The notes beneath the pieces are model-generated. The model was given only the letters and a program-made list of their open reading frames with translations, had not been told where the DNA came from and did no database searches. Position numbers and translations under genes: made by a program. Shown here piece by piece: positions 7,044 through 28,973 of a stretch of DNA of 30,299 bases; position 1 is the stretch's first letter; every line of letters starts with the position of its first letter. The stretch is from an uncultured Methanosarcinales archaeon (lineage in GTDB: Archaea; Nanobdellota; Nanobdellia; Woesearchaeales; CAZYIM01): positions 9,415 through 39,713 of the forward strand of contig CAZYIM010000028.1 of NCBI GenBank assembly GCA_964647565.1. The letters are read 5' to 3'.

Positions 7044-7122
7044 CAGGACTTCAAAAGGTTGCTCTCTATATAAAACTTTGTTTTCCTGTCAGAGTGAAAA
7101 AGATTTTTCATAATAAACTTAT

Positions 7123-7137
7123 AAAAAGATTTATATA
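7123..7137 (+). promoter_or_regulatory. BRE/TATA promoter of the pilus operon
   Basis: AAAAAGA followed by TTTATATA (7130-7137), upstream of the ATG at 7178. Confidence 0.55.
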
Positions 7138-7177
7138 TACATTCTTTAATAAAAGTTTTAGTTGGCGCTATTTTAAA

Positions 7178-8896: not shown

Positions 8897-8899
8897 TGT

Positions 8900-10786: not shown

Positions 10787-10878
10787 TGAACAGAACAATT
10801 AGTATGATTATTTCATTGGTCATTGCCATTATTGCTTTAGGTATCATGTTATTTTTTGTGTTTAAGACTCTTTATTAA
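10786..10878 (+). CDS. 30-aa single-TM peptide MNRTISMIISLVIAIIALGIMLFFVFKTLY (absent from ORF track)
   Basis: ATG overlaps the upstream stop (TAATG); its TAA lies 1 nt before the next ATG (10880). Confidence 0.7.
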   Translation: MNRTISMIISLVIAIIALGIMLFFVFKTLY

Positions 10879-10879
10879 A

Positions 10880-11311
10880 ATGGAAACAACAGAACTCATA
10901 GTTTACCTGGTTATTGCCATGTTGGTCGGCTTTCTCATATTAGGTTTTATATCTGGCTGGAAGGCTGAAAATGCCTATGATTCTTTGAAGGGACTTTTAT
11001 TGAGAGAGCGCAGTCTTAATTACCAGGAAATACCTAGTGAGGAATTTGTTGTGACTACTTATAATCTTTGGAAGCAGTGTGGCTTTGGAGAGGTAAATAA
11101 AAGCCAGACCATCTATGTTGAGGGAACAGGTTCGATTAACAAGGCCTTCCTGTTTCAGGACTTGCTGAAGATGAACCTATGCGAATCCATCCAGTCTGCA
11201 GCAAATAACTGTGGCGCCAGGGAGGATGTTACCTTTACGCCAGCAGATATTGTGCTGCCTGCAATAGTTAAGATAGAGTGCGGCAGTGGCAACTTACTGA
11301 TATCGTCATAA
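10880..11311 (+). CDS. Pilin-like protein (no basic leader; METTE-hydrophobic helix)
   Basis: N-terminal TM with Glu at position 5; four Cys in the globular part; operon context. Confidence 0.7.
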   Translation: METTELIVYLVIAMLVGFLILGFISGWKAENAYDSLKGLLLRERSLNYQEIPSEEFVVTTYNLWKQCGFGEVNKSQTIYVEGTGSINKAFLFQDLLKMNLCESIQSAANNCGAREDVTFTPADIVLPAIVKIECGSGNLLISS

Positions 11312-11326
11312 AATTCCGAAAACTCA

Positions 11327-11427
11327 GTGAAATTATAGAAAATTTCACAAGTCCTCAGAAAATTTTATTTTCTGGGACGCCAGCAACCTTCGCTTGCTTT
11401 GCGTTACGAAAATGCCTTGCATTTTCG
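11327..11427. repeat. Cluster of four short hairpins (REP/MITE-like intergenic element)
   Basis: GTGAAATT/AATTTCAC (11327-11348); GTCC(T)CAGAAAAT/ATTTTCTGGGAC (11351-11378); AGCAA/TTGCT (11382-11398); CGAAAATGC-CTT-GCATTTTCG (11407-11427). Confidence 0.75.
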
Positions 11428-11505
11428 AAAACTTTATAAGTTCAAAAACCGAAAATTGAATAAAAGAATTACATAGTGTTCATTTTAAAAAGAGAGGTGT
11501 TATTC

Positions 11506-11907
11506 ATGGCTGATGTTAAGGAAAGGATCATAACTACTATTGTTCTTGTAGTATCACTGATTGTAGCAGGATTCATTTTTATATTATTGAATTCCAGATT
11601 TTCAACTGAGATGGCACTTTTGGTTGCTCTTCCGTTAGGCATCTTGATAAATATAGTCTATTTGCTTGCTTTTTATGAAGAAACCCACGACAAGAAAAAA
11701 AAGGTCAATACCCTGACCCAGATTTGGGCGGGTTGTGTAATAATTGTGGCGTCCATTATTGTTGGTATTCTTCATGCTATCTTTAACATTGAGATAGGCA
11801 CCCTTTTGATATACCTCACTGTTGTGGTGCTCATCTTGATTTTCGTCTCGATCAAGAAGTATGATAACTACCTTGAAACGAGGCTGGCTGTTAAATCAAA
11901 AAAATAA
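11506..11907 (+). CDS. Four-TM hypothetical membrane protein
   Basis: GAGGTG SD at 11494-11499 before ATG 11506; four hydrophobic segments; own TATA-like TTTATAA at 11433-11439. Confidence 0.75.
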   Translation: MADVKERIITTIVLVVSLIVAGFIFILLNSRFSTEMALLVALPLGILINIVYLLAFYEETHDKKKKVNTLTQIWAGCVIIVASIIVGILHAIFNIEIGTLLIYLTVVVLILIFVSIKKYDNYLETRLAVKSKK

Positions 11908-11929
11908 TGCTTTAAACTGGTGAATTAAA

Positions 11930-12328
11930 ATAGAACTACCAATTAAGGTTATAATTACCTTTTTCGTTGCAGTGGTTGTAGCAATAGCAGTGATCCAATT
12001 TGCAAGGACTATGATAGATAATGCAAGGGATAACATAGACACTATTGGTCCTGATGTTCCTGAAAATAAGATAATTGAGGTACAGTTGATTACAGAAAGT
12101 CAGATACTCCATTTATCAGAACAGTGCTATAACGATCAAAAAGGTAGTTTAGAGAAGGTAATGTGTTTTGTTCTTAGAGGACCTATCGCTGCAGGAGTTA
12201 CAAAAGATACTGTAAAGACCTCGTGGAATGTGCCAGATGCTAACATGACAACTAATTTTGATCCTGCAGATAAGGCATTGTTCATTTATTATATTCCAAT
12301 AACAAATACCGTTGAGGTAATAAATTAA
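11930..12328 (+). CDS. Pilin-like protein; probable ATA start (M)ELPIKVIITFFVAVVVAIAVIQF
   Basis: GGTGA SD at 11919-11923 contains the in-frame upstream stop; the hydrophobic helix extends 14 codons upstream of the track's GTG (11972). Confidence 0.7.
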   Translation: MELPIKVIITFFVAVVVAIAVIQFARTMIDNARDNIDTIGPDVPENKIIEVQLITESQILHLSEQCYNDQKGSLEKVMCFVLRGPIAAGVTKDTVKTSWNVPDANMTTNFDPADKALFIYYIPITNTVEVIN

Positions 12329-12352
12329 AAAACAAGAAAAAGAGGTTATAAA

Positions 12353-12940
12353 ATGAAAAGAATTTTCGGAAAGAAAGGAACTGAAAAACCAATCGAGATT
12401 TTTGTTGCTCTGTTTATCATTTTGGCTGTGGCAATGGTCATGTTAAAAGTTTTTAATACACAGATTACTCAACAGCAGGATACTCTTTCAGATGAAGAGC
12501 AGAAAAGACAGCTTGAGTATCTGCAGACTGATGCGAAACAGGAGTGCAGCAGTTTATGCGCATTGGCTCAGTCCAATCAATGTTCTCCTTCTGATAAGGC
12601 AGAATATTGCATGAAGAGGATTAATGAATATTGGTCTAAAAGTCCTGATGGTACTATCTTGCAGCAGATTGGCACTACCAATTACTGTGAAGATACTCTA
12701 TACTGCCCTCAGATAACCAAATGTGAATGTGGCGGACGAGAACTTACAATCGAGAACTGCTTTAAGTTGGTATGTGACCGTCTTCTTAATGAACATGGTT
12801 GGTTGCCTGCACAAGCAGAGACATATCTGACAAATACTGTCTATCATCCAGGCGCCTGCTATGCAACAGCTTCAGGTCAGGATCAGATTCTCCATTGGTA
12901 TTTCTCAAAAGCACCTATGATAAACTGCTCTGTACCATAA
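12353..12940 (+). CDS. Type IV prepilin-like protein with class III signal peptide, Cys-rich head
   Basis: MKRIFGKKG|TEKPIEIFVALFIILAVAMVML; AGAGGT SD; many Cys. Confidence 0.8.
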   Translation: MKRIFGKKGTEKPIEIFVALFIILAVAMVMLKVFNTQITQQQDTLSDEEQKRQLEYLQTDAKQECSSLCALAQSNQCSPSDKAEYCMKRINEYWSKSPDGTILQQIGTTNYCEDTLYCPQITKCECGGRELTIENCFKLVCDRLLNEHGWLPAQAETYLTNTVYHPGACYATASGQDQILHWYFSKAPMINCSVP

Positions 12941-12952
12941 AACAGGTGACTG

Positions 12953-13363
12953 ATGGAAGAGGCAATATGGATTGCAATAGGAGTTATTGCTGTAATAATA
13001 GCAGTCGGGATCATTTCTCAGCTAGTTGTAAGGACTAATGAAGACAGTAAACTCAACTCAATTGACTCTTCCATAGCGTCATTAAAGCAGAAATGTGATT
13101 TTGTCTGTAATAATCCTGTTGACACTCGATTGTCTGTGACAGTGCCTATTGCTTCAGGTGCAGTCCTTACAGCTAAAGGCAACAAGATGTGTATTTTTAT
13201 CAAAGACAAGGTTGCTTGTGACTCATGTAAATGTTCTTTGATCAATGAGACTATTCTTGATTTGAACAATACTCAATCTTTACAGCTGTTCAGAACGCAC
13301 GATTACTCCTGCTATTTTACCAAGTTACAAAATGAAAATATTAAAGTCGAATGCAGGGGCTAA
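12953..13363 (+). CDS. Pilin-like protein (no basic leader; MEEAIWIAIGVIAVII)
   Basis: GGTGA SD; N-terminal TM then amphipathic helix and beta-rich Cys-containing head. Confidence 0.7.
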   Translation: MEEAIWIAIGVIAVIIAVGIISQLVVRTNEDSKLNSIDSSIASLKQKCDFVCNNPVDTRLSVTVPIASGAVLTAKGNKMCIFIKDKVACDSCKCSLINETILDLNNTQSLQLFRTHDYSCYFTKLQNENIKVECRG

Positions 13364-13772
13364 CGCTGTAAATATAGTCATGTGGATAGGAGCAATATTA
13401 GCTGTTCTTATTATGGTAGCTTGGTTCATAAAAACATTTAGGCCTTATAACGTGGATCTGGATGTTGTAGATAAGGATATTGGGGTGTTGTTTGATTATT
13501 TCAGTGGTGCGTGCAACAGCCACTACTTCAAGGCCAGGTTCAATCCTGTTTTACAGCAGGGGTATATTAGTATAAACAATACCCAGATTTGCGAGGGCAT
13601 TTACATATATAATAAATGCCGCGATGGTAAAAACGGCTGCAATTCTAGTGTCTTATTTCAGAGATGCAGAGTCTTGATTTGCAATACCAGCAACCATTAT
13701 TTTGCGAATCTGACCAATATTACATATTTTTGGATGGAAAAGAATGATACTTTCAGATTTTGGACTGAATAG
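13332..13772 (+). CDS. Prepilin-like protein
   Basis: MKILKSNAG|ANAVNIVMWIGAILAVLIMVAWF; overlaps both neighbours; several N-x-S/T sequons. Confidence 0.7.
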   Translation: MKILKSNAGANAVNIVMWIGAILAVLIMVAWFIKTFRPYNVDLDVVDKDIGVLFDYFSGACNSHYFKARFNPVLQQGYISINNTQICEGIYIYNKCRDGKNGCNSSVLFQRCRVLICNTSNHYFANLTNITYFWMEKNDTFRFWTE

Positions 13773-14181
13773 ACGTGGAACATATTCAATAATAACCACT
13801 TTTTTCTTTATCATAGTGGTTCTTGTTGTGATTATCGGTTTGACTTATTACAGTACCATTATCCTGCAGAGCAAGAAGATCATGGCTGATCAGATATCCA
13901 AGTATGATCTGGCCAGAAGTACCAAGGATGCTATATATCAATGCTATGGCCGGACAGTGTTTCGGATTGATAAGATCAACACGTCTCAATCCTGTATCAC
14001 GTTTGGAGAGGTTATTGGTTATGAGGTCATCCAATACGACAATGGCCTCAATTGCCAGCAGAAAAATTTTACCTTTGGCAATCCAACCTCAAATTATCAG
14101 ATATTCCATTATCTTATCCCTATTGTACAAAATGATACCAAGACAACCTGTCTTGGCAAATTGATAATACATTTAAAATGA
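13744..14181 (+). CDS. Prepilin-like protein with class III signal peptide
   Basis: ...LNRRG|TYSIITTFFFIIVVLVVIIGL; ATGA overlap with the next gene. Confidence 0.75.
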   Translation: MILSDFGLNRRGTYSIITTFFFIIVVLVVIIGLTYYSTIILQSKKIMADQISKYDLARSTKDAIYQCYGRTVFRIDKINTSQSCITFGEVIGYEVIQYDNGLNCQQKNFTFGNPTSNYQIFHYLIPIVQNDTKTTCLGKLIIHLK

Positions 14182-15563
14182 GTGTAGTTGAAAACATTGT
14201 AGGTGCATTGGTGATCTTGATAGTCTTCTTGCTAGTGGGCATTCTAGTCTTCAATAGTATGACCAAGACATCTATGCAGGATCTTATGCTTGAGGAGGGA
14301 GACTTCCTTAAAAACAAATGGGAAACTGATCTCAATGCTTTATTGATTGTGACAGAACCACAGACTAACCAGCCAATTGGCTTTCTACTTTCTGACGCCA
14401 TCTTTTTTAGAGATGAGATAATAACCGTAAATAGTTCAATTGTGAATGCTACTATCAATGTTACACAATTATTTAAGGATCTTCTGGATAGGGCCTATGG
14501 TCCTGGTGAGTACTACATAAATTTTAGGCCGATTATTGTTGATGTAAGTCTTAATTTCATTGTAGATGGTACTAACAGTTTGGTAGCAGAAAGACAGTTT
14601 TTGGCAACTAACATGACTTCTATTTTAGATACAATCCTTCATACTATTAACAAGACTGGCGAAGAAAAGGTTATGGCTACTGTCTATGTCATAGGATCAA
14701 GAAAATGTGATATCTTTGACAACCTGGGAGATTCAAGAGTGATTTGTCGGGTATTAGATGAGAATGATTTGTATGTTCCTGAGCCCTTCTATAACACTAC
14801 CTTAAATCAAGAGAAACTTCGCTGGAACATTAGGCCGCCCTATAACTATTCTTGGCTGAATGGTAACCAATACGCTAAGGCATTTGATTATTATGGTGCT
14901 GACTGGGGTACAGGAACTGCATTTGCATCCATGACTTCTGCAATTGAAAGCCTTAGCAGATTGACTCTTTTCTTCCCTTTTGGAGATGAACTCTCTTCTA
15001 GTTCCATATCGGACTCTTGTTATAATTATAGTGATCAGGAGGATTGGATCCTTTGCGGGCTCTGCGACGACAATTGTCCAACCGCACGTTCAAGATTGCT
15101 TTTGAACAGGACTATAAATGTACTAAAGAATCATAATCATTATGCATTCCCCATCTACTCCTTTAACTGCGACTATGCGTATGCCCCAATTTGGGGTCAG
15201 TTTCGAACTACCCATGCAAATTATGGGGCTGCACCGCCTCCTAATGATAATTGGTGTACGAACACAGAATGTGGAGGCTGCAGTGTTACAGGAGGTGGTA
15301 CTTGTTTCCATTCAAATTGTTGGCCCCAGGTGAAAAGCCAGATGCAATGGCTGGCAAATGAGACTGGCGGCACTGCAATAGAGCTAACAAATCTTAATGC
15401 ATTATCTTCGCTTATATTAAATGCTACCAATCAAACATTCAATGTGTTCAATGTCACAATCGGAAATAAGAATGCTTCCCGAGAACGTTATGTCCTTAAC
15501 AGGATCATACCCATGGCCAAGGGATACAAAGCAGATGTGAATCTATGGGTGTATAAAAAATAA
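14178..15563 (+). CDS. Pilin-like protein with VWA-like domain and Cys-rich insertions (putative adhesin)
   Basis: MSVVE-hydrophobic helix; MIDAS-like LNFIVDGTNS; FFPFGDE; VWA-end-like WLANETGG; many sequons. Confidence 0.7.
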   Translation: MSVVENIVGALVILIVFLLVGILVFNSMTKTSMQDLMLEEGDFLKNKWETDLNALLIVTEPQTNQPIGFLLSDAIFFRDEIITVNSSIVNATINVTQLFKDLLDRAYGPGEYYINFRPIIVDVSLNFIVDGTNSLVAERQFLATNMTSILDTILHTINKTGEEKVMATVYVIGSRKCDIFDNLGDSRVICRVLDENDLYVPEPFYNTTLNQEKLRWNIRPPYNYSWLNGNQYAKAFDYYGADWGTGTAFASMTSAIESLSRLTLFFPFGDELSSSSISDSCYNYSDQEDWILCGLCDDNCPTARSRLLLNRTINVLKNHNHYAFPIYSFNCDYAYAPIWGQFRTTHANYGAAPPPNDNWCTNTECGGCSVTGGGTCFHSNCWPQVKSQMQWLANETGGTAIELTNLNALSSLILNATNQTFNVFNVTIGNKNASRERYVLNRIIPMAKGYKADVNLWVYKK

Positions 15564-15596
15564 ACTTATGATGAAAAAATTATGAAGGTGAAATAC

Positions 15597-18029
15597 ATGT
15601 TTGGAAAAAAAGGTAATGTTATTGCTGCAGTTCTTATTGTGGTGGCTATTCTTGCAGGATTTGTTGCATATACGCAGGTTGTCAACAAACCAAGTCCGCA
15701 TCAAGAGGATCCGACCAAGCTTATGTCAGAGTCTGAATTGGCCGTCCAGAGAGCCTTATCCCAGGCCCTAAGTGAGTTTATACAGACTGGTTACTCTTAT
15801 GATTCTGGAGTGTGGTTCTGCGATTATCCTTTTCCTCCCGATCTTAATGAATCCAATTCATCTTTATATACATATCTCAATAAATATCTGAGGCTTTATA
15901 CCCACCATCTTGAGAGTACAGGTGTAGATATTACTGATCCTGATCTTGCTGTTGATATTATTTCGGATCAGTTAAAAGATCTGAACAATGATTCTGTAAC
16001 AATAAATTTAGATAAGTTTTTGGCAAGTTCTCAAACAGAGGATGTAATCAGGAGCCAGGAGCTTTCAAAAGAGTACAGTTTTGCTTTTAAGATTTGGTTG
16101 ATCTATCAGAATCTGCAAAACTGGATGGATAGCGGTGCAGGCAACATTACTGCGGAAGTGGTGGATCTCATATCTGAGAAGCAATGTCAGTTCAGGAGTT
16201 GCTGTTGTTTTAGAAATGATACCTTTGATGTGGCAAGATATGGAGATATGGGTTATATAAAGTCTTTTGATGTCACAGAGCACGAGGTTGAAGTCAAGAT
16301 TGATGACAGCCTTGCAGAACTGAATCAGATGTTTACAGGAACAGGTATAGAATGCCGTAGGGAGATTGAACGGATCCATGTTGAGAATTATCCTGTTTTT
16401 GATTATGGTTTGACTACCACCTGTACATATTCCTGCTCCACTCAGAACTCAAGTCTGAATCTTTCCAATATGGGGGAGGTTAAAAGATGGAACGAAGATA
16501 TCACAACACCTGGCGTAGATAGTCCTTCTGAATGCGGAGGAGGTTTGGATAGGCCGACCAGGAGCTATCCGGATGTCTATAATCCTCCAGGCAATTATGA
16601 GACCATACCTGAGCATGAGAATGAATCTGCATCAAAATACAGCTATGATCTAGACAGTCCATATGATCTGCCTACCAACTATGTTGCACAGTTTTTATTT
16701 TACACAACACCTTCTGTCATAGAGTCTGTGGCAGTGGATAAGGGTGTTGCAGTACTTTACTCTGTTGTCTGTGAAGATCCTTCTGTCTTGATAGAGACTG
16801 AGAAGGGAACAGAGACCTTGAAGACTAAGATACAGCTTAGAGTTTCTCTGAAGTATGATTGTGTTGTGCCTGACACCAGTGAGGAAGAAGGGAATGTGAC
16901 ATGCAACTATTGGGGGCCTCTACCAATACCGGGACCTCCCGCCGGAACATGCCCTCTTGATTGTCCGAAATGCAATATGTGTGTTCCCAAGGATCCTAGC
17001 AATCAGTTTTCAACAGATCCTGATGACTATGAGTGTATTGCATATGCACAAGGTATAGAAACAATCTTTCCTGAGATACCTGCGAGTCTTTGCCCCGATA
17101 ACAAATGCATGACCTGCGATCCTGCAACAGCACGGCCTGATCCTGCTGGTACTGGTTATGATATCATGGATTGCACCCTGCCATATTATGGTTACCAGGA
17201 TAAGGATTGTGCCAAATGTGAGATCTGCATAGAAGACCCTACTGGTGCATGCGGTTCTGTTGATGATGCTATTGCACTCGGACAGCCAGCAGGTGTAGTT
17301 TCACAAATAAGAACTGCCATAAACCAGATCTCAGATACTGACTGTCCTGGAGATTGTGAAGGCTGTGATGATGACGGCAGCTGTGGTTTGGGTCCTCCTT
17401 CCATCGGCGCGTGGGATTGCGGCAATGCGTGTCAGACATGTACTGCCAATAATGTTTGTTCAGTCCATAGCTCTCAAGCCGACAATGAATGTGATGGTAC
17501 TAAATGTGCCAAGTGTGGTACTGATGGCTCGTGTGGTGAGTATTTCAATGATGGTAAAAGGCACAACTGTCCTGCATGCAATTCTTGCCAAGGGACTGCA
17601 GATTGTGTCTTTGATGCGAGCATGGGTGGTTGTGGAACCTGTGATATGTGTGATGCGACTGTTGGAGGCTGTGCACCTAACCCTGCTAAGCTAGGTGACA
17701 AATGTGGGTCGAAAGAATGTTATGAGATGAGATGCGCTAACAATGGCTGCACGGATAAACGTGTTTTTGAAGGAAAGATTTGCGGCAACAATCCTCAGTG
17801 TAGGGGTAGATGCGATTCCAGTGGTGATTGTGATGCAAGTGCAAACGATGGCCAATCTTGTGATTATTGCGGAGAAAATCCCGATGCAGGATCCTGTGAT
17901 AACGGTTATTGCAAATTAGACAAGCTTTGCTGTCAGGGAAATATCTGTGCTGGCGGTTCAGACACATATAAATGCTGTGGCCCGGCTTGCTACCTAAAAT
18001 CTAAAGGGGCTTGTCCAGACGTAACATAA
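15597..18029 (+). CDS. Large prepilin-like protein with C-terminal Cys-rich repeats (putative adhesin)
   Basis: AAGGTGA SD before ATG 15597; MFGKKG|NVIAAVLIVVAILAGF; C-terminal ~360 aa of repeated C-x2-5-C-x2-4-C-x4-7-C modules. Confidence 0.8.
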   Translation: MFGKKGNVIAAVLIVVAILAGFVAYTQVVNKPSPHQEDPTKLMSESELAVQRALSQALSEFIQTGYSYDSGVWFCDYPFPPDLNESNSSLYTYLNKYLRLYTHHLESTGVDITDPDLAVDIISDQLKDLNNDSVTINLDKFLASSQTEDVIRSQELSKEYSFAFKIWLIYQNLQNWMDSGAGNITAEVVDLISEKQCQFRSCCCFRNDTFDVARYGDMGYIKSFDVTEHEVEVKIDDSLAELNQMFTGTGIECRREIERIHVENYPVFDYGLTTTCTYSCSTQNSSLNLSNMGEVKRWNEDITTPGVDSPSECGGGLDRPTRSYPDVYNPPGNYETIPEHENESASKYSYDLDSPYDLPTNYVAQFLFYTTPSVIESVAVDKGVAVLYSVVCEDPSVLIETEKGTETLKTKIQLRVSLKYDCVVPDTSEEEGNVTCNYWGPLPIPGPPAGTCPLDCPKCNMCVPKDPSNQFSTDPDDYECIAYAQGIETIFPEIPASLCPDNKCMTCDPATARPDPAGTGYDIMDCTLPYYGYQDKDCAKCEICIEDPTGACGSVDDAIALGQPAGVVSQIRTAINQISDTDCPGDCEGCDDDGSCGLGPPSIGAWDCGNACQTCTANNVCSVHSSQADNECDGTKCAKCGTDGSCGEYFNDGKRHNCPACNSCQGTADCVFDASMGGCGTCDMCDATVGGCAPNPAKLGDKCGSKECYEMRCANNGCTDKRVFEGKICGNNPQCRGRCDSSGDCDASANDGQSCDYCGENPDAGSCDNGYCKLDKLCCQGNICAGGSDTYKCCGPACYLKSKGACPDVT

Positions 18030-21108: not shown

Positions 21109-21777
21109 CTATTTTAATTTTAGGACATCATCTAAATTTATAATAGGCCTGTTCAGGCTTTCTTGATCATCATAGCCAATTCTTGGGCAGGCTGTGTTTA
21201 CCCATACGTCTACAAATGGGAAATTAGCAAGACCTGCAAGTTCTATTGTGTCTGCAATAAAGAAATAGAAATCCTTTTCAGGGAACAATACTTTAAGTTT
21301 TTTTGCCTCACTGAGCCTGTTCTGGCCATGCTTTTGGGAGATGATGATGCCTACATCCTTTGACACCACAAATTTCATCAGGGCTGCCTTTGTTCTCTGT
21401 TTAATACTTTCAATGTCCCCTTTGTTGAGTTTTTTTAGCTTCTTGGAAAAGGGATTGTATGTGAAGACAGGTTTCTGATTGATAAGCATGAGAGTTTTGG
21501 GATGGAACATGCCATCGCCGATATAAAGGAACGCCTTTACTCCATTATTGAAGTTCTCGATGCTGCAACCCAGCAGTTGGCCTGGATATTTGCAATGGGA
21601 TGGTTTGATTAGCACCACCTCTTTTCCAGCCTTTTCCAGCTGTTTTTTTATGTTTTTTAGCTCTCCAATAAATTGAACTGCAGTAAAGAGAGCGATTTTT
21701 TTCGGTAGTTTTTCAATTTCATCCGGCTTGAGATCTATTTTTTCATCGGACTTGGCTTCAACATGTATTAGCTGCAT
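21109..21777 (-). CDS. dph2: Diphthamide synthesis protein Dph2 (short form)
   Basis: TAVQF, PGQLLGC, YIGDGMFHP, KHGQ, VWVNTACPRIGYDD. Confidence 0.88.
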   Translation of the reverse strand: MQLIHVEAKSDEKIDLKPDEIEKLPKKIALFTAVQFIGELKNIKKQLEKAGKEVVLIKPSHCKYPGQLLGCSIENFNNGVKAFLYIGDGMFHPKTLMLINQKPVFTYNPFSKKLKKLNKGDIESIKQRTKAALMKFVVSKDVGIIISQKHGQNRLSEAKKLKVLFPEKDFYFFIADTIELAGLANFPFVDVWVNTACPRIGYDDQESLNRPIINLDDVLKLK

Positions 21778-21871
21778 TTTCTTCTAGTAAATCCTTCTCT
21801 ATTAAATATCTTTCTTAACCACTCTTTAATCAATAGAATATTTTAAATACTCAATATCCTGTGTTTTGTTA

Positions 21872-23776
21872 ATGGCAGAACTTCAAAAGACCCTGAGTTT
21901 CAAGGTTATTCTACTTATAACCATCAATTCAATTATGGGTACTGGAATATTTTTCTTACCTGCTGTTGGTGCAGCCAAGTCAGGGCCTGGAAGCATAATC
22001 TCGTGGGTCATACTTGCAGTGCTGTCAATATATATTGCTATGTGCTTTGCAGAGCTATCTAGCATGTATCCTAAATCAGGAGGGATTTATGAATACTGCA
22101 AGCAGGCTTATGGAAGTTTTCTTTCTTTTATCATAGGCTGGATGACCTTGATTGCAGGAAACATCACAATTGCTATGCTTGTGGTCGGAGCTATTAGATA
22201 TCTTGGACCTGCTTTGCCAGGAGTTTTAAAGATTTCTATTAGCCTGTTCTTTATATTTATCTTTAATTACATGGCTTACAAGGGTATGAAGACTAGTTCA
22301 ATTATGCTTGTGACCTTTGGTTTTATAACCCTATTCTCAATTCTGAGCCTGACATTTTCAAACTTGATAAAATTCGATGTATCTAATATAACCCCTTTCT
22401 TTACTCATCCATCATCTGCAATCTTTATTACAATATTTTTTATTGCAGAAACTTTTTTTGGCTGGGAAACCGCAACTTTTCTCGCTGAAGAGACCAAGAA
22501 TCCTCGGAAAACCATCCCTAAAGCGTTGATACTAGGTACGGTCATAATAGCTATAATCTGTCTGTTTTTTGTGGTGAGTTCACTAGGTGTACTTCCTTGG
22601 CATGTTTTTGGTGCATCTAAAACTCCTTTGGCACATTTAGCCATGTTTCATTTCGGAACAGCTGGAACCAACATTTTTACAATCCTGGTCTATCTTTCCA
22701 TAATAGGTAGCGTTGCTGGTTGGATTGTTTCTGCACCAAGATTGATCCTGGCTCTTGCAGAGGATAAGCTTTTCATACCCCAATGTGCCCAGATTCACGA
22801 AGTTAACAAGACACCTCATAAGGCTATCCTTTTCCAGACAATTCTAACTAGCATACTTGTCATAGTTGGTTCGGGATCATATGATACTCTTCTTGAACTT
22901 TTGTTGCCTTTGGTCCTGATTATATACTCTGCTACGTTACTAAGTGTTGTAGTTTTAAGATTTAAAAAACCCTTGGTTGAACGGACATATAAGGTGCCAT
23001 TGGGTAAGATCGGACCGATTCTTGTGGCTATTTTATGCCTGGGACTTATTGGGTATTGGATGACCAACATCGAGCATGCTGTTAGTATATTTAAGATTAT
23101 TATATCCCTGATTTTTTTTGGGGTGCCTATTTATTTTCTATTGCTATTTTATTATGATCCTGATGCAATTATTAAGATTAATAACCTTTTGAGTTATTTT
23201 AATCTGACTTTTGAGAGTCTTTTAATGCCTAAGCATGTCAGAAAGCATATGCTTGGTATGTTTGGAGATCTTCGATCAAAACGAGTGCTTGAATATGGGG
23301 CTGGTGTTGGTACGATGACAGTCCACATTGCAGATGTTGTAGGGCCTCGCGGTAAGATCTATGCAACTGAGCTTGGGGATAAGAATGTCAGGATAATAAA
23401 GAAACGTTTGAAGAAAAAAGGCTTTGATCATGTTCGTGTGATCCATGATGAACATCAAATAAGTCGAGTGCATCCAGATGTAAAAGAGGTAGATATCATC
23501 TTTTCAACTGGTATGATAGGTTATATGCAGGATATGAAGAAGATCCTAAAAGAGATGAATAACCTTCTTCCTGAAGGTGGTAAGATATGTTTTGTCGAAT
23601 TTGTTGATTTCTTCTGGATAATCCCCAATCTGGGCATACTTTCGGCTGAGGAGAAGCTAAAGCAGCTTTTTAGGGAGTGCGGATTCTCAGTTCAGATTGA
23701 AAAAAAGCGAAGGTTGTTCTGGAGCTATCTCTTTGTCTATGGTATGAAGAGCAAAGAGGATGTGCCTGTGATTTAG
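21872..23776 (+). CDS. APC-family amino acid permease fused to a class I SAM-dependent methyltransferase domain
   Basis: INSIMGTGIFFLP, AELSSMYPKSGG, FFGWE...AEETKNP, 12 TM; C-terminal VLEYGAGVG...VGPRGKIYATE...LPEGGKI. Confidence 0.9.
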   Translation: MAELQKTLSFKVILLITINSIMGTGIFFLPAVGAAKSGPGSIISWVILAVLSIYIAMCFAELSSMYPKSGGIYEYCKQAYGSFLSFIIGWMTLIAGNITIAMLVVGAIRYLGPALPGVLKISISLFFIFIFNYMAYKGMKTSSIMLVTFGFITLFSILSLTFSNLIKFDVSNITPFFTHPSSAIFITIFFIAETFFGWETATFLAEETKNPRKTIPKALILGTVIIAIICLFFVVSSLGVLPWHVFGASKTPLAHLAMFHFGTAGTNIFTILVYLSIIGSVAGWIVSAPRLILALAEDKLFIPQCAQIHEVNKTPHKAILFQTILTSILVIVGSGSYDTLLELLLPLVLIIYSATLLSVVVLRFKKPLVERTYKVPLGKIGPILVAILCLGLIGYWMTNIEHAVSIFKIIISLIFFGVPIYFLLLFYYDPDAIIKINNLLSYFNLTFESLLMPKHVRKHMLGMFGDLRSKRVLEYGAGVGTMTVHIADVVGPRGKIYATELGDKNVRIIKKRLKKKGFDHVRVIHDEHQISRVHPDVKEVDIIFSTGMIGYMQDMKKILKEMNNLLPEGGKICFVEFVDFFWIIPNLGILSAEEKLKQLFRECGFSVQIEKKRRLFWSYLFVYGMKSKEDVPVI

Positions 23777-24963
23777 CTTAACTCATGTCCCATCAATTCT
23801 ATAATGTCCTTTGCTATACCTGTCTTATTGTGGGATTCTATAATCTGGTTTCCATTGAAGATATATGCATTATGTTTGTTATCTTTCATATCAAGATCCC
23901 TGTTGGCGATCACGGTCTCATAACCTTCTTGAAGTCTGTTGTGGGCAATATCAAAGAGCTTTTCTTGGGTTATGCCTACCTCGTACTTAAAGGTGGTCAT
24001 ATATAAGTTAGGATACTCTTTCCTGACTTTTTTGATGACTTTTAAGGTTTCTTCCATTTCCAGATGCTGGATGCCCTCCTTTGAAGGTATCTTGCCCTTC
24101 TTCACTTCAGTCGGCTTGTAGTCTGCCACTGCGGCTGAGAAAATGCCTGCATCGTAGTTGATAGACTTTAATTCCTTGAATACATTACTGATGTAGGCAT
24201 CTAAGGTTTGGTGATAGTGCACATCCAGGTAGTCGGGCATTTTAATATTGGTCTTGCCCATCAGCAGCTTTATGTCTGCACCTCTTAAATATGCTTCTTT
24301 TGCAATCTCCCTTCCAAGCTTGCCTGAGAAGATGTTGGTTATCATCCTCACATCATCGATCTTGACAGGAGTTGGACCTGCTGTAACCAGTAATCTCTTG
24401 CCTTTGATGGGATGATCTGAAAGCTCTCTGCAGGCTTCTGCTGTGATGGTATCGAGACGAGCCATCTTTTTTTTGCCTTCTCCTATCCGTGGAGGGATGA
24501 TTTTTATGCCATATTTAGATGCCTTTTCCAAGTTTTCCAGAAAAAACGGATTCTCATACAATGACTCGTGCATAGTTGGCACCAGGTGAATGGGTTTCTT
24601 GTATCCAAGCGCGCTTGCTATAAGAGTGGTCACGGGATTGTCTGCTGTGCCTGTAAAGATCTTGTTGAATGTATTCAATGTTGCTGGTGCTACCAGAACA
24701 AGATCCTCTTTGCAGATATGCTCTGCCATTCCGCTAAGTTCGCTGACAACAGGTTGTTCAGTCGCCCATTCAAGGGCTGCCATACCGATGAATTTTAGAG
24801 CCTCTGAGGTTGTATATGCCTTGACATCAGCACCATACCTTCTCAGATGTCTTGCAAGTTTGGGTGTCTCTATGGCTGCTATTCCTCCTGTCACACATAG
24901 TGCTATTGATTTATTCTTAAGATGGTCTCCGATTAGATCCACTTGATGGTCTTCATTTTTCAT
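23773..24963 (-). CDS. coaBC: Bifunctional phosphopantothenoylcysteine decarboxylase/synthetase CoaBC (Dfp)
   Basis: LCVTGGIAA, EHI, VAPATLNT, PTMHESLY; LLVTAGPT..IDDVRMITNIFSGKLG, SAAVADY, FKYE. GGAGG SD 8 nt before ATG 24963. Confidence 0.9.
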   Translation of the reverse strand: MKNEDHQVDLIGDHLKNKSIALCVTGGIAAIETPKLARHLRRYGADVKAYTTSEALKFIGMAALEWATEQPVVSELSGMAEHICKEDLVLVAPATLNTFNKIFTGTADNPVTTLIASALGYKKPIHLVPTMHESLYENPFFLENLEKASKYGIKIIPPRIGEGKKKMARLDTITAEACRELSDHPIKGKRLLVTAGPTPVKIDDVRMITNIFSGKLGREIAKEAYLRGADIKLLMGKTNIKMPDYLDVHYHQTLDAYISNVFKELKSINYDAGIFSAAVADYKPTEVKKGKIPSKEGIQHLEMEETLKVIKKVRKEYPNLYMTTFKYEVGITQEKLFDIAHNRLQEGYETVIANRDLDMKDNKHNAYIFNGNQIIESHNKTGIAKDIIELMGHELS

Positions 24964-24999
24964 AATGCATTCCTCCGACACTTTTTCATTCTTTATTCT

Positions 25000-25848
25000 T
25001 TACAATTCTAACTTATACAACAACCTACTCGCATTGTAGTAATAAACTTCTTTTTTATCCAATGGGTGAAAATCTCGCATTGCCTCTTCAACTACATATA
25101 TTGAATCTTCGTGTGTTTGGACTGGAAAATCTGTTCCGAAGAGTAGTTTCTTGGGTCCACATTCGCCAAGCACTCTTGTGACATCCTCGATGGCTTGGGG
25201 GATATCTTCCTTTTCATATTTGGAGTCGAACAGGCCGCTTGAATCTGTGTAAGCGAGGGATTGCCTGTTGATGACTCCTATCAGGTCTGTGAGAAAGGGT
25301 TTTGCAAGATGGCTGATGATTATCTTGACTCCGTATTTGTCTGGGATGAACTCCAGATCAGATGCTTTGACAAAATCTGTGATGGCTGGTTTGCCGTAGT
25401 TTCTCATACTTGAGTATGAGTATCCTGTGTGGAACATCAGTGGTAGGGAATAATCCTGGGCTAATTTGAGTACTTGCTTGAATTTTTCGGATTTCAGGTC
25501 GATGTGTTGGTATCCTGTGTATATCTTTATGCCTTTTATCAGTTTTTTCTCTGTCAGCTCAAAGAGTTCGTTCATACCCTGTCTGAAGTACAAGTCAAAG
25601 TCCAGGCTTCCAAACATGTGAAAATTTTCATGTGAGATTATACCTCTTTCTTTCTCTTGTATCCAGTGCAGCAACCTAAAATTTGATATGCCTGTTCCTC
25701 TGTGAGGAAAATAGGTTGCAAGAAGAACAGTTGTATCTATCTCGTGTTTTTTCATCTCTTTAGCTATTGCATCGATACTGCACGACTTGGGCACTACATG
25801 ATTGAGTGTCCTATTGGTTGTATGGCAGTGGATGTCAATTTTATTCAT
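25000..25848 (-). CDS. Amidohydrolase-superfamily TIM-barrel metalloenzyme (Amidohydro_2-like)
   Basis: IDIHCH, KGIKIYTGY, LMFHTG, IISHL, YTDSS, LLFGTDFP; ATG 25848 overlaps the upstream TGA. Confidence 0.88.
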   Translation of the reverse strand: MNKIDIHCHTTNRTLNHVVPKSCSIDAIAKEMKKHEIDTTVLLATYFPHRGTGISNFRLLHWIQEKERGIISHENFHMFGSLDFDLYFRQGMNELFELTEKKLIKGIKIYTGYQHIDLKSEKFKQVLKLAQDYSLPLMFHTGYSYSSMRNYGKPAITDFVKASDLEFIPDKYGVKIIISHLAKPFLTDLIGVINRQSLAYTDSSGLFDSKYEKEDIPQAIEDVTRVLGECGPKKLLFGTDFPVQTHEDSIYVVEEAMRDFHPLDKKEVYYYNASRLLYKLEL

Positions 25849-26921
25849 TTGGACCACCAAGCTTCGTATGCATGACTTTCGGGTGTATTTCGAGGCCTAA
25901 AGGACATATTTGCTAGAAAGTCAAGATTATCTGCAACAGCAACAAATCCGTGACCCGCCATGTTAAATGCGAAATTTATTTGATCAGAATCTGGGAACTG
26001 TTTTTTGACTTCATCTGCTTCTTCTAGTGTTCCACAGGGAAGAATCTTTTCTGAAAAGGGTGCATTATTTACATAGACATGACCGTGGAGCATATATTTT
26101 GCTGTCTTATAATGTTGATAGAGCCTGATCTGTATTGGTGTGTCAACAGAGGGTGCATGTGTTCCGAAGTACTTTACTGGAATCTCGGGAAGTACAGCAA
26201 CAAATCCTTCCCTGCCAATAAGTCTCTTATCGATGTTTCGTCTTGAGACATAGATGCGATCTTCGTTTCTAAAAGAGGGAAAACCCAAAGTACATCTGAA
26301 TGATGCATTGCCAAAGAACCTGTTGGTTGCTTTGAAGCTAGAGTGAACCAGAAGATGGAATTGTTTGCCAAATTGTCTTATTAACTCAAAGAACTCTTTT
26401 TCATCAGGAATTTTTTGACTCTTTCCTATACTTTGGCTTCCAACCCTGGTGTGACTTATCATTTGTTTGACTCTTTTTCCAAGGGTGTGGCCGACCTGTC
26501 GAAAATCTGAACTGCTTACGTAAACATTTCCCAAAGGATCTAATACTGTCCCGACATATAGCTGGTTATCCTTTGTTAGCTCAACTATTAGATTGCTTTT
26601 GTTCTTTAGCCCATGATAGATGACATCTGGAAATGCATATTTATCTTCTATATTTCTTTTTGAAGTCACCAGAAGGCATCGGCTGTGTGTTTTTTTAATT
26701 TGATTTACATGTTTTGGCTTGTCGTTAGGTACATTTGGGAACCAGAAAACAGGATTATAGCTCTCTATTGAACTAATAAGGCTCTCAAGTTCTGAGAACT
26801 TCCCTCCATTATGATATTCCGCTGGTAGGTCAAGATAGTTGAATATGGTCTTGGCAATTTTAGATGGCTTGCCGCCTTGATCATTATATGTTCCGCCGAC
26901 ATAAAGTATTTTATTTTTCAT
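25845..26921 (-). CDS. Two-domain protein with C-terminal class II aldolase/adducin-like domain
   Basis: FFGNASFR, IYVSRR, PSVDTPIQ, YMLHGH, PCGT, GHGF correspond to the GNxS / PSxE / HxH / NHG motifs, with substitutions. Confidence 0.7.
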   Translation of the reverse strand: MKNKILYVGGTYNDQGGKPSKIAKTIFNYLDLPAEYHNGGKFSELESLISSIESYNPVFWFPNVPNDKPKHVNQIKKTHSRCLLVTSKRNIEDKYAFPDVIYHGLKNKSNLIVELTKDNQLYVGTVLDPLGNVYVSSSDFRQVGHTLGKRVKQMISHTRVGSQSIGKSQKIPDEKEFFELIRQFGKQFHLLVHSSFKATNRFFGNASFRCTLGFPSFRNEDRIYVSRRNIDKRLIGREGFVAVLPEIPVKYFGTHAPSVDTPIQIRLYQHYKTAKYMLHGHVYVNNAPFSEKILPCGTLEEADEVKKQFPDSDQINFAFNMAGHGFVAVADNLDFLANMSFRPRNTPESHAYEAWWSK

Positions 26922-27023
26922 ACAAAATAAGACTCTTTTTACAAACTTTAAACTATATCTATAAATCTTTAAAGAGGTTTATAGAAAAGAAAAATATAAA
27001 AAGAGAGGCTGTCTATTAGTATT

Positions 27024-27929
27024 ATGAAAGTCGTTGAAAGGAATGTCCAGGAAATCGGGAAGTCCTTACTTGTGACCTTGCCCAAACCATGGACGCAGAT
27101 GCTGAAAATCAAGAAAGGCTCTAAGCTTAAACTGTTAGTTTCGGATCAAGGTAATCTTTCTATTTCCCCTGAGTTTGTCCAGAAGGAAGAGAAGAAGGAA
27201 AAGGTCATCCAATATGATGCGCATTTCAAAAGACGCTTTATTAGAGAGTATTTTGATGGGGGTGGCAGGCTGATTATCAAGTTCTCAAAAAAAATACCTG
27301 AACTCGAAAGGAAAGAATTCTATGCATTCCTGAAACGTTTTATGAATTCCCAGATCATTGAAGAATCTGAGGCCAGGATTGTCATCAAGTGCTTTAGGAT
27401 TGATGACCTGACAATGAGGGAGTGTCTGCAAAGGATGTTTTTTCTAACTTTGAACATTATTGATGAGATGATGGGTGAGAATGACAGATTGAAGGTAACT
27501 GAGATGCGAAACACTGCAACCAGGTTCTATTATATGCTTGTCATGCAGGTCCGTAGATATCTTTCAGAAGGTAAGTTCACGTCATCAGGCCAAGTTCCCA
27601 TTATCAGGGCAATGGATATGCGGATGGTTGCTGAGAAGATCCAGCGTATCTGTGAATTTCTTGAGTCCATAGATGGGGTGGAGAATAAAAAACAGCTTGA
27701 GCTGGCCAGTCTAATTAGGGACTTCTATGCCCGAGCCTATAGCTGTTTTATCAACGAGGATTTTGAAAAGGCCCTTCCTCTTTACAATGAGGCTAAATTA
27801 TTGATTAAGAAATATGAACCTGGAGATTCATCTGATATCAAGTCCATGGATGCTGCAATCTGTCTTAGGACTGTCAGGCTTCTTAGAATTCTCAGGTACT
27901 CCATTGAGATATCTAAACTAGTCAGGTAG
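27024..27929 (+). CDS. Archaeal AbrB/SpoVT-PhoU family regulator
   Basis: RNVQEIGKSLLVTLPKPW N-terminal AbrB motif; helical PhoU-like repeats (RFYYMLVMQ, EKIQR). Confidence 0.82.
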   Translation: MKVVERNVQEIGKSLLVTLPKPWTQMLKIKKGSKLKLLVSDQGNLSISPEFVQKEEKKEKVIQYDAHFKRRFIREYFDGGGRLIIKFSKKIPELERKEFYAFLKRFMNSQIIEESEARIVIKCFRIDDLTMRECLQRMFFLTLNIIDEMMGENDRLKVTEMRNTATRFYYMLVMQVRRYLSEGKFTSSGQVPIIRAMDMRMVAEKIQRICEFLESIDGVENKKQLELASLIRDFYARAYSCFINEDFEKALPLYNEAKLLIKKYEPGDSSDIKSMDAAICLRTVRLLRILRYSIEISKLVR

Positions 27930-27998: not shown

Positions 27999-28973
27999 GT
28001 GGGATACAATAAGTTGCAGAATCTGTTAATTGGTGTTGCGATAGGAGATGCCAAAGGTGTCCGGTATGAGTTTGTAACCAGAGGCTTGAAAAACAGGTAT
28101 AAGACTCTTAATCTTGCAGATTATGAACTGAATCCCAATCCCAAATTTGGGACTGGCATTCTGGGCATGTATACTGATGACACACAGATGACCATAGGAG
28201 TCTGTGAACTTTTGCTCTCTGGCAAGGAGTTCAATCTCTATAATCTTGCACAAAGCTTCTTGGATTGCTATAAACGAGATCCTCTTCCAGGAGGATATGC
28301 CGGCGGATTCCAAAAATTTCTCAATAGTACTGAGACTGCTGAAGATTTCGTAACAAATATTAAATCAAAATCAAAACGTAATGGTGCTGCAATGAGAGCA
28401 ACGCCTCTTGGAGTCATATCAGATCTAGACACACTTGTTGAATATGCCACTATTAACGCCAAACTCACTCACAATGTGCCAATGGGTATTGCATCCTCAG
28501 TGTGTGTGGGTCTGTTAGCGCATCATAGGATATATGACAGAACTGATAATGAGCTGGATTTTATACTGCCCTATATTGAGAAGATAGATCCTCGTTCAGC
28601 AGAACACTATGAACAAGCCTATAATCTGGAATCAAAAGATCCTGAGATTCTTTTTGGAAAGATGACCAAGAGATTGGGTCCAATAAAATGGAAGAAAACA
28701 AGAAAAGGCGTGCCTTGCAGCGGATTGAGGACACCTGGTGCTGTTCTTTATCTTCTTAATAATTATGGTGATGATCCTGGTTTAACTCTTAGGGAATCTA
28801 TGCTTCTTGGAGGGGATACAGACACTGTAGCAGCGATAGCAGTAGGCATTAGTGCTATAAATCAAGGTTTCGACTCAATACATAACTATCTCATAGAAAA
28901 TCTAACAAATCACGATTATGGGAAGGATTATCTACTCGATCTTGGAGATCAGTTGTTCAAGAAGTTTTATTAA
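27999..28973 (+). CDS. ADP-ribosylglycohydrolase (DraG/ARH family)
   Basis: GVAIGDAKG, YTDDTQMT, NGAAMR, LTH, GGDTDTVAAI; GTG start ~22 nt after TTTATATA. Confidence 0.92.
   Translation: MGYNKLQNLLIGVAIGDAKGVRYEFVTRGLKNRYKTLNLADYELNPNPKFGTGILGMYTDDTQMTIGVCELLLSGKEFNLYNLAQSFLDCYKRDPLPGGYAGGFQKFLNSTETAEDFVTNIKSKSKRNGAAMRATPLGVISDLDTLVEYATINAKLTHNVPMGIASSVCVGLLAHHRIYDRTDNELDFILPYIEKIDPRSAEHYEQAYNLESKDPEILFGKMTKRLGPIKWKKTRKGVPCSGLRTPGAVLYLLNNYGDDPGLTLRESMLLGGDTDTVAAIAVGISAINQGFDSIHNYLIENLTNHDYGKDYLLDLGDQLFKKFY

Follow-up and report, generated by a model that had tools for sequence, protein, structure and literature searches.

A conserved operon joining two uncharacterised enzyme families to coaBC in a DPANN archaeon: a possible front end for coenzyme A salvage

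The subject of this study is a three-gene operon in the genome of an uncultured DPANN archaeon of the order Woesearchaeales (GenBank assembly GCA_964647565.1; 2.68 Mb in 86 contigs, 86.9% complete). The window, as we call the whole stretch of 30,299 nucleotides that was analysed, spans positions 9415-39713 of contig 28 (CAZYIM010000028.1). Three genes, which we name A, B and coaBC, lie there head to tail on the minus strand and form one operon with a divergent AbrB-PhoU regulator opposite (Table 1). A preliminary description of the sequence had reported three co-oriented genes, an ATGA overlap between the first two, a gap of 36 nt before the third and a GGAGG site. All of this was confirmed: the ATG of B overlaps the stop codon of A (25848-25845), and the 36 nt run from the TAA of B to the CoaBC ATG at 24963. 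The open reading frame (ORF) listing also holds alternative start codons for B (TTG at 25860) and for CoaBC (GTG at 24981), the latter without a GGAGG-type site. The observations reported below make it highly probable that B and A function together with CoaBC in coenzyme A (CoA) metabolism. Our best overall explanation, which we hold tentatively, is that the three genes encode the front end of a pathway for CoA salvage.

Table 1. The operon and its immediate surroundings (positions are counted from the first nucleotide of the window)
Feature	Position	Strand	Description
Gene A	25845..26921	-	358 aa; residues 1-158 a trimmed domain homologous to CoaB (phosphopantothenoylcysteine synthetase, PPCS); residues 170-349 with an AraD/FucA-like class II aldolase fold
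Gene B	25000..25848	-	282 aa from the ATG at 25848; predicted metal-dependent TIM-barrel hydrolase (Amidohydro_2, PF04909)
CoaBC	23773..24963	-	396 aa; phosphopantothenoylcysteine decarboxylase (PPCDC) at residues 18-172 and synthetase at 187-355
GGAGG ribosome-binding site	24972..24976	-	8 nt upstream of the CoaBC ATG; read from the sequence
Intergenic region between A and the regulator	26922..27023	.	102 nt, AT-rich (sequence); presumed to hold both promoters
Regulator	27024..27929	+	301 aa; AbrB/MazE-type DNA-binding domain (PF04014 on the window protein) and PhoU-like domain
Permease-methyltransferase	21866..23776	+	636 aa; APC-family permease (PF13520, residues 10-395) fused to an S-adenosylmethionine (SAM) methyltransferase domain (methyltransferase domains at 470-580)

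To follow the operon beyond this genome, genome contigs were searched with A as the seed. This yielded 69 loci, 53 of them bacterial, and 65 contained a usable A ORF (16 archaeal and 49 bacterial). CoaBC, or split CoaC and CoaB, was found within 4 kb of A in 24 of these 65 loci, that is in 10 of the 16 archaeal and 14 of the 49 bacterial ones. The bacterial loci linking A to CoaB/C belong to metagenome-assembled genomes (MAGs) of gut Bacilli, Tenericutes and Clostridia and to one Cellvibrionaceae MAG; they show a LysR gene beside coaC-coaB-A, with overlapping genes. Nine archaeal loci carry B alongside A, in the orders B-A-C or A-B-C (C standing for CoaBC). Metagenome contigs were searched with B, and 80 loci were obtained. 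CoaB/C was present in 67 of them, and in each of the 13 others the sequence flanking B is shorter than 2.5 kb on one side or both. Where at least 2.5 kb was available on both sides, CoaB/C was found in 34 of 34 loci and A in 11. The genes occur in seven different orders in the B loci (BC 31, CB 18, BAC 9, ABC 3, CBA 3, BCA 2 and ACB 1), and in one metagenome locus (L170) a CoaD-CoaE fusion follows B-CoaBC. In DPANN-type archaea, B and CoaBC form the invariant core of the arrangement, with A as a frequent third member. A homologue of the regulator, whose PhoU domain was recognised on the protein of locus L011, adjoins the operon in 11 archaeal genome loci and in 32 of the 80 metagenome loci. 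The linkage seen in the window is thus conserved elsewhere, in archaea as well as in bacteria.

A tree of 111 A sequences was calculated with FastTree after removal of near-duplicate viral loci, of ORFs with an X or a length above 450 aa, and of those with no more than 300 aligned residues. The copies of A linked to CoaB/C fall into three separate clades (DPANN, gut Bacilli and locus L073), with viral sequences between them. Protein identities among the loci range from 35% to 63%, so these are not near-identical copies from a single lineage. Since the arrangement recurs in dozens of unrelated contigs, it lies far beyond chance. An adjacency due to accident, or to a purely historical gene order without functional coupling, is extremely improbable in view of a linkage that holds through seven arrangements of the genes, in both archaea and bacteria, in three clades of A and in every well-flanked B locus. 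We also examined 201 genomes sampled at class level, each with a completeness of 70% or more. Among the 6 with a DFP (PF04127) match above 100 bits (7 pass the Pfam cut-off), 2 were found to contain full-length A, and among the 195 others none. The two are the genome of the window and G150, the genome of locus L011; as related genomes are not independent, these counts are indicative only.

Judged from its sequence, CoaBC is a canonical, ordinary predicted PPCS/PPCDC. It matches the TIGR00521 equivalog model with 260.6 bits (cut-off 219.7) over profile positions 1-390 of 392, with the PF02441 flavoprotein domain on its PPCDC segment and the DFP domain on its PPCS segment. Its gene is the sole DFP match in its genome (G000). 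Besides CoaBC, the back end of the CoA pathway is present there as a bacterial-type CoaD-CoaE fusion of 379 aa, unlinked to the operon. No known front end was recognised. Searches of this genome with hidden Markov models (HMMs) found no phosphopantothenate synthetase (PPS), DUF359 (the archaeal dephospho-CoA kinase family), pantothenate kinase (PanK) I or III, PanB or PanC. The PanK II (Fumble) model had no match in this genome, nor in the control genomes, and is uninformative. The only two GHMP kinases resemble HddA and IspE rather than pantoate kinase (PoK). Shimosaka et al. (2019; PMC6650551) describe PoK and PPS as missing from Nanoarchaeota and some other archaeal groups. CoaBC is not placed among the housekeeping genes of a complete pathway.

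These searches were extended to 50 of the 69 A-bearing genomes; those dropped were for the most part contigs that are short or truncated, and the second locus of one genome was dropped too. PPS was found in none of the 50. PanK III was present in 8, all among the ten largest (1.7-5.3 Mb), PanK I passed its cut-off in 1, and Fumble gave 2 matches, both partial. CoaB was detected in 33 genomes, CoaD above cut-off in 20 and CoaE above cut-off in 23. In 24 of the 33 genomes with CoaB, neither a recognised PanK nor PPS was found. The CoaD-CoaE fusion occurs in most of the archaeal genomes that have the operon. The genome G032, in which LysR adjoins A, has CoaD and CoaE and no CoaB.

The products of A and B had been said not to belong to the archaeal CoA route. 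Neither has a Pfam or NCBIfam assignment to any known CoA route. Neither protein matched PanK I-III, PoK or PPS in these databases, and none of these enzymes was among the top 50 structural matches, an absence from a list that is not an exclusion; A and B might be no more than functional analogues. The names given to the homologues at source are just "class II aldolase/adducin family protein" for A and "amidohydrolase" for B.

Gene A had been called class II aldolase-like. This holds for its C-terminal half and not for the protein as a whole, which begins with the CoaB-homologous domain. The match of A to the Pfam profile Aldolase_II (PF00596) is weak, with 25.4 bits for a cut-off of 22.2, and covers residues 199-281 only (profile positions 16-91 of 183). 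An AlphaFold2 model of A, built on 70 sequences, has two domains and a predicted local distance difference test score (pLDDT) of 92.2. We compared residues 1-156 of this model with known structures using VIA-align. The first match was CoaB of S. pneumoniae (2gk4_B; Z 16.4, root-mean-square deviation 2.6, 154 residues aligned), followed by other PPCS structures: 5int (Z 14.8), 4qji (14.3), 6tgv (13.7), yeast Cab2 (12.9) and human PPCS (11.8). All six best matches to this domain are thus PPCS, and those that follow are response-regulator receiver and other unrelated folds, with Z of 9.9 or less. At the sequence level, hhalign matched 136 A N-domains with 27 CoaB sequences at 87.7% (E 3.4e-6), co-linearly across the whole domain. 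An earlier hhalign run with small alignments (A against a 9-sequence CoaBC alignment) had given 16.5% only and is superseded by the larger one.

The N-terminal domain of A resembles CoaB/PPCS (2gk4, M. smegmatis CoaBC 6tgv, human PPCS 1p9o) in its fold over about 150 aligned residues, in its glycine-rich loops and in adjoining coaB. Two such loops are kept, "GGT" and "GGK", which align with "aGgT" and "ssGk" of CoaB. In contrast to CoaB, it has no match to Pfam DFP at E ≤ 0.01, is fused to an aldolase-fold domain and is shorter by about 60 residues. The profile alignment shows two deletions: the loop between the glycine motifs, and some 23 residues that form a flap following the "AAVADY"-type strand. 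These two CoaB segments presumably hold N210 and K289 of the E. coli enzyme, which we take to be needed for the two half-reactions and the acyl-cytidylate chemistry. By this comparison the domain is a CoaB homologue and, because both segments are deleted, A is predicted not to be a PPCS.

The C-terminal domain (residues 170-349) adopts in the model a class II aldolase fold, with about 150 residues aligned to FucA (2opi_B, Z 14.0), 4c25 (Z 13.6), YgbL (6voq, Z 13.2) and AraD (1jdi, Z 13.0). Only the AraD/FucA stretch was matched when A was searched against the PDB by profile. Residues D260, H279, H281 and H324 are invariant in 70 sequences. The first three align with the SDT and HTH motifs of AraD, and KPSvDTP aligns with KPSSDTP of AraD. 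The domain keeps the residues that match the Zn ligands of AraD; the role of H324 is suggested by its position. With the AraD superfamily (the L-ribulose-5-phosphate 4-epimerase AraD, the L-fuculose-1-phosphate aldolase FucA and the 3-oxo-tetronate 4-phosphate decarboxylase OtnC/YgbL) it shares the fold at Z 13-14 and the KPSvDTP and HxH motifs, which correspond to the metal and phosphate motifs of AraD, but the identity is 14-20%, the "KPSG" phosphate loop of AraD is replaced by an Arg/Lys-rich "SRRNvDK", and A has the extra N-terminal domain.

Variants of A were observed in several loci. One fusion protein of 776 aa (P0241) combines A, CoaC and CoaB; it is a single sequence and possibly an assembly frameshift. 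Another (P0242) combines A with a second N-domain and a SAM methyltransferase, and several phage versions of A carry zinc-ribbon extensions. In viral locus L129 (7986-9172), A is split into N-domain and C-domain ORFs, which are followed by the S component of an energy-coupling factor (ECF) transporter. On a Woesearchaeota contig (L024, 3352-5642), A is followed by a tandem paralogue of 404 aa (27% identity) that overlaps its stop codon.

A trimmed CoaB that lacks two segments, lies next to CoaBC and is once fused to it could also be read as a non-catalytic partner that docks on CoaB and modulates or channels its reaction, the aldolase-like domain sensing or binding a phosphorylated effector. 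Two PPCS paralogues of Plasmodium form a heteromeric enzyme, according to the available part of PMC12985681. We consider this role of A improbable, as its putative AraD-type metal-ligand and phosphate-site residues are invariant in 70 sequences, which argues for catalysis by the C-terminal domain, and as A occurs without CoaB in 17 of the 50 genomes and in 45 of 49 phage records. A predicted complex of the CoaB domain (residues 183-396) with A scored 0.00; run without controls, this is evidence neither way.

Gene B matches Amidohydro_2 with 64.7 bits (cut-off 26.4) over profile positions 1-287 of 289. Its AlphaFold2 model (pLDDT 93.7) is closest in VIA-align to 3irs (Z 24.0), 4dlf of the COG3618 lactonase family (23.8), 3cjp (23.5) and the LigI-like lactonases 4i6k and 2ffi (22.3), with family decarboxylases next at Z 20-21. 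Residues H7, H140, H180 and D240 are invariant in 45 sequences and H9 is kept in at least 90%, and they probably bind metal. The best hit of B in a sequence search of the PDB was an uncharacterised hydrolase (E 1.8e-4), so that no close relative has been solved. Sequence and model together indicate that B is a TIM-barrel hydrolase, predicted to be metal-dependent and nearest to the lactonase branch of Amidohydro_2. It shares with this branch (the COG3618 L-fucono-1,5-lactonase 4dlf; the 2-pyrone-4,6-dicarboxylate lactonase LigI 4d8l, 4i6k and 2ffi) a compact TIM barrel of 280 residues and the HxH/His/His/Asp residues, but its identity to these proteins is 15-24% and the decarboxylases of the same family are nearly as close. 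To our knowledge, no known member of the lactonase branch acts in CoA metabolism.

The invariant pairing of a hydrolase-superfamily protein with CoaBC (34 of 34 well-flanked loci) could also serve repair or recycling. Gene B would then hydrolyse the amide of 4'-phosphopantetheine damaged by oxidation, alkylation or acylation, or of phosphopantothenoylcysteine (PPC)-type compounds to 4'-phosphopantothenate, and CoaBC would rebuild the thiol end with cysteine; A would handle another damaged or host-derived form, and the operon would renew the pantetheine moiety taken from a host instead of making it anew. This suits host-dependent organisms without pantoate and pantothenate synthesis and needs no new kinase, which fits the absence of a kinase signature. 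A parallel may be seen in PANK4, in which we take the DUF89 domain to be a damage-control phosphatase fused to a eukaryotic PanK. However, a cycle of hydrolysis and resynthesis spends CTP and cysteine, the nearest folds of B are lactonases and decarboxylases rather than amidases, and neither the phage copies of A nor those without CoaBC are explained. We regard repair as rather unlikely.

Since the linkage is conserved and no known front end was found, B and/or A may supply the substrate of CoaB. The preliminary description had proposed a salvage route, or enzymes that supply or process the CoaBC substrate. This is still the best reading in view of the linkage and of the missing front end, but the invariant partner of CoaBC is the amidohydrolase and not the aldolase-like gene. 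We propose that the operon would constitute the front half of a CoA salvage pathway, the CoaD-CoaE fusion being its back half. B would open or hydrolyse a salvaged pantoyl-containing precursor, and A would convert or activate the intermediate and hand it to CoaB. The predicted Zn/phosphate pocket of A resembles those of enzymes whose substrates are C4-C5 hydroxy-acid or ketose phosphates, such as OtnC, which we take to act on 3-oxo-tetronate 4-phosphate; it could suit a C4 hydroxy-acid phosphate such as the 4-phosphopantoyl group. The CoaB-derived domain could bind the nucleotide, the phosphopantoyl group, or both. Together, B and A would be a non-homologous replacement for PanK or PoK/PPS. 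That they supply 4'-phosphopantothenate is a proposal we make with reserve. The operon, its conservation and the domain homologies are observed, as is the failure of the searches to detect a known front end; which compound is used, whether B acts before A and how the reactions proceed are inferred. Two other schemes were rejected: the conversion of pantolactone to pantoate by B, followed by PoK/PPS or PanC/PanK, as none of those genes is present, and a role of A as an alternative PPC decarboxylase, as CoaC co-occurs with it.

The proposed role is that of PoK/PPS and of PanK I-III, which is to provide 4'-phosphopantothenate for CoaBC. As with PoK/PPS, it would be a lineage-specific two-gene solution clustered with later genes of the pathway. 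The difference is that no relation of A or B to these enzymes was found in sequence or fold, PoK having been checked in the genome of the window only, through its GHMP kinases.

Several observations weigh against a salvage front end made of B and A. The two proteins have no recognisable kinase, ligase or ATP-grasp signature, and neither fold is known to phosphorylate. One fusion protein (P0292) joins A to an IMPase-family phosphatase (2p3n, E 3.9e-18), which is ill-suited to an enzyme forming phosphate esters. A is dispensable next to B-CoaBC (11 of 34 loci), and the genome G180 (85% complete) has the regulator next to B-CoaBC and no A anywhere. B in turn is absent from the bacterial A loci. 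Neither protein alone can therefore be the universal missing step. CoaB itself was not found in 17 of the 50 A-bearing genomes. No CoaD, CoaE or PanK was detected in eight genomes of gut Bacilli/Tenericutes with LysR and coaC-coaB-A (G028, G030, G031, G036, G038, G040, G041 and G044; loci L037, L039, L041, L048, L051, L054, L056 and L061), so that the pathway would be incomplete in them even with a new first step. The expected complementarity failed as well: four CoaB-positive, A-negative DPANN genomes were expected to have PPS or PanK III, and neither was found. One of the four, G250 (a 2.1-Mb DPANN genome of the same order), has a bacterial-type panB-panD-coaBC-panC cluster (L157, contig 57, 3787-7032), which suggests a transferred de novo pantothenate pathway. 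The genome of the window also encodes a second phosphopantetheine adenylyltransferase (PPAT) protein of 363 aa on contig 19 (L003, 802-1893, minus strand), with a strong bacterial-type CoaD domain at residues 1-161 (TIGR01510, 149.5 bits). Its C-terminal domain of 200 aa, which has no lead in Pfam, the PDB or the ESM Atlas (the Atlas search being uninformative), could instead be the missing kinase and is a candidate independent of A and B. Two or three CoaD-type genes occur in several related DPANN genomes. The absences, finally, rest on MAGs and HMM searches, and the distribution of A in viruses, described below, counts on the same side.

The eight Bacilli genomes without CoaD and CoaE bear also on the other possibility raised in the preliminary description, a CoA-like metabolite. 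The operon would make this, or some cysteamine-bearing compound, from a non-pantothenate precursor built by A and B. Two further observations are in line with it: at L073, genes for a flavoprotein, an HD protein and a CoaB-like protein accompany A, and a canonical CoaBC is encoded elsewhere in that genome, and methyltransferases recur near A or fused to it. However, the CoaBC of the window is single-copy and above the equivalog cut-off, and its genome has CoaD-CoaE, so that it must serve CoA itself. The idea received no specific support and is quite improbable.

Gene A is mainly a gene of huge phages, usually without CoaBC. Its nearest ESM Atlas clusters are 63-93% viral. In IMG/VR, 72 loci with A relatives were found, many on contigs of 100-550 kb, some with terminal repeats. 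The 71 viral loci with an A ORF contain no B and no CoaB/C relative within 8 kb. Among 50,697 GenBank phage records, 16 contain A: the 15 Prevotella Lak megaphages MK250015-MK250029 and one 462-kb uncultured phage (LR756500.1). These proteins (viral loci L139-L144) are 26-31% identical over 93% of the protein. CoaB is also present in 4 of 49 A-bearing viral records (L152, L153, L154 and L151, corresponding to G265, G299, G273 and G298), in three of them with a CoaC-like flavoprotein beside it; in these huge-phage records they look like phage-borne CoA-pathway genes. At L089, a viral or proviral locus, a CoaD-CoaE fusion directly follows A. PHROGs holds no family for A, for three of its viral relatives or for B. 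A fold search of BFVD with the model of A gave nothing at E ≤ 0.001, the best match being a class II aldolase of Bodo saltans virus (1.6e-3).

The neighbours of A in viruses vary. The most frequent is a CCA-adding enzyme, in 8 of the 71 viral loci, followed by an Rnl1-type RNA ligase in 6, another RNA ligase in 4, NUDIX in at least 4 and radical SAM in 4; PTH2, a tRNA-binding protein and CYTH were also seen. Such a context, with the mostly viral Atlas clusters, the viral loci devoid of nearby CoaB/C, the occurrence in Lak megaphages, the phosphatase fusion, the ADP-ribosylglycohydrolase genes found near A in the window and in viral locus L093, and an AraD-like domain typical of pentulose-phosphate enzymes, would suit a huge-phage nucleotide or ribose-phosphate enzyme acting in RNA repair, in NAD/ADP-ribose turnover or in CoA-nucleotide turnover. 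Only B would then be a true CoA partner, and A would be tied to CoaB/C in cells only through shared nucleotide or CoA turnover. We consider this unlikely. No viral neighbour recurs in more than 8 of 71 loci, the sole recurrent cellular partners are CoaB/C, CoaDE and regulators, the N-terminal domain is homologous to CoaB specifically, and an A-CoaC-CoaB fusion exists. A Pfam scan of the neighbours of A without adjacent CoaB/C covered 27 cellular loci with 80 proteins and viral loci with 106, and gave no recurrent partner. It returned single leads: purine genes, an R15P isomerase accompanied by AMP phosphorylase, a GHMP kinase, acetyl-CoA synthetase, CYTH in two cases and an ECF S component.

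The other genes of the window offer looser associations. The permease-methyltransferase gene is convergent with coaBC and overlaps its stop codon by 4 nt. Elsewhere, an amino-acid permease adjoins A in locus L015, and small stand-alone methyltransferases follow the regulator in L159 and L160. The convergent permease may be an associate of the operon involved in precursor uptake, a weak link. Just past the regulator, at 27999-28973 on the plus strand, lies an ADP-ribosylglycohydrolase gene; a homologue (32% identity) stands 2 kb downstream of A in viral locus L093 (9901-10887), on a contig that also has coaB and coaC. On the minus strand at 21109-21777, an ORF of 222 aa matches a Dph2-type diphthamide synthesis profile over positions 82-284 of 302, its N-terminal part being apparently missing or its start elsewhere. 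Farther away (6950-18029, plus strand), the gene of a T2SSE/type IV-pilus-like ATPase (648 aa) precedes ten ORFs on the same strand, 118-815 aa long and none with a Pfam match; this run may be a cell-surface filament or attachment cluster.

The most far-reaching form of the salvage proposal is that A and B are two new enzyme families which, starting from a salvaged pantoyl compound, open a third way to 4'-phosphopantothenate beside PanK and PoK/PPS. This stronger claim is doubtful. In its terms, B would serve DPANN archaea, alone or together with A, whereas reduced gut Bacilli would rely on A, and megaphage A would drive host CoA synthesis past its regulated first step. A itself would be the product of a CoaB duplication whose copy became fused to an AraD-like domain.

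Our literature search, with subscription journals and supplements outside its scope, found no account of either family, nor of any fusion between CoaB-like and aldolase domains, nor of CoaBC having an aldolase-like or amidohydrolase partner. The available text of PMC12570885, PMC8721197 and PMC9503650 holds nothing on such partners. The CoA pathway itself is known; the two enzymes, their linkage to coaBC and the distribution in megaphages appear undescribed. The origin of the CoaBC substrate in Nanoarchaeota-type DPANN is an acknowledged gap (PMC6650551), and a matching gap is seen in the 24 CoaB-bearing A genomes without a recognised front end, which include uncultured Bacilli of the human and animal gut. 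Two conserved uncharacterised families tied to coaBC by gene order, one of them a CoaB paralogue, offer a concrete candidate pair. If they perform the missing step, CoA biosynthesis would have a third entry route, and auxotrophy would be predicted differently in DPANN and gut taxa. The occurrence of A in Lak and other huge phages, some of which have coaB and coaC, would point to phage manipulation of the host CoA supply. Should the phage A be unrelated to CoA, it would still represent a large uncharacterised family of phage enzymes with a clear predicted active site.

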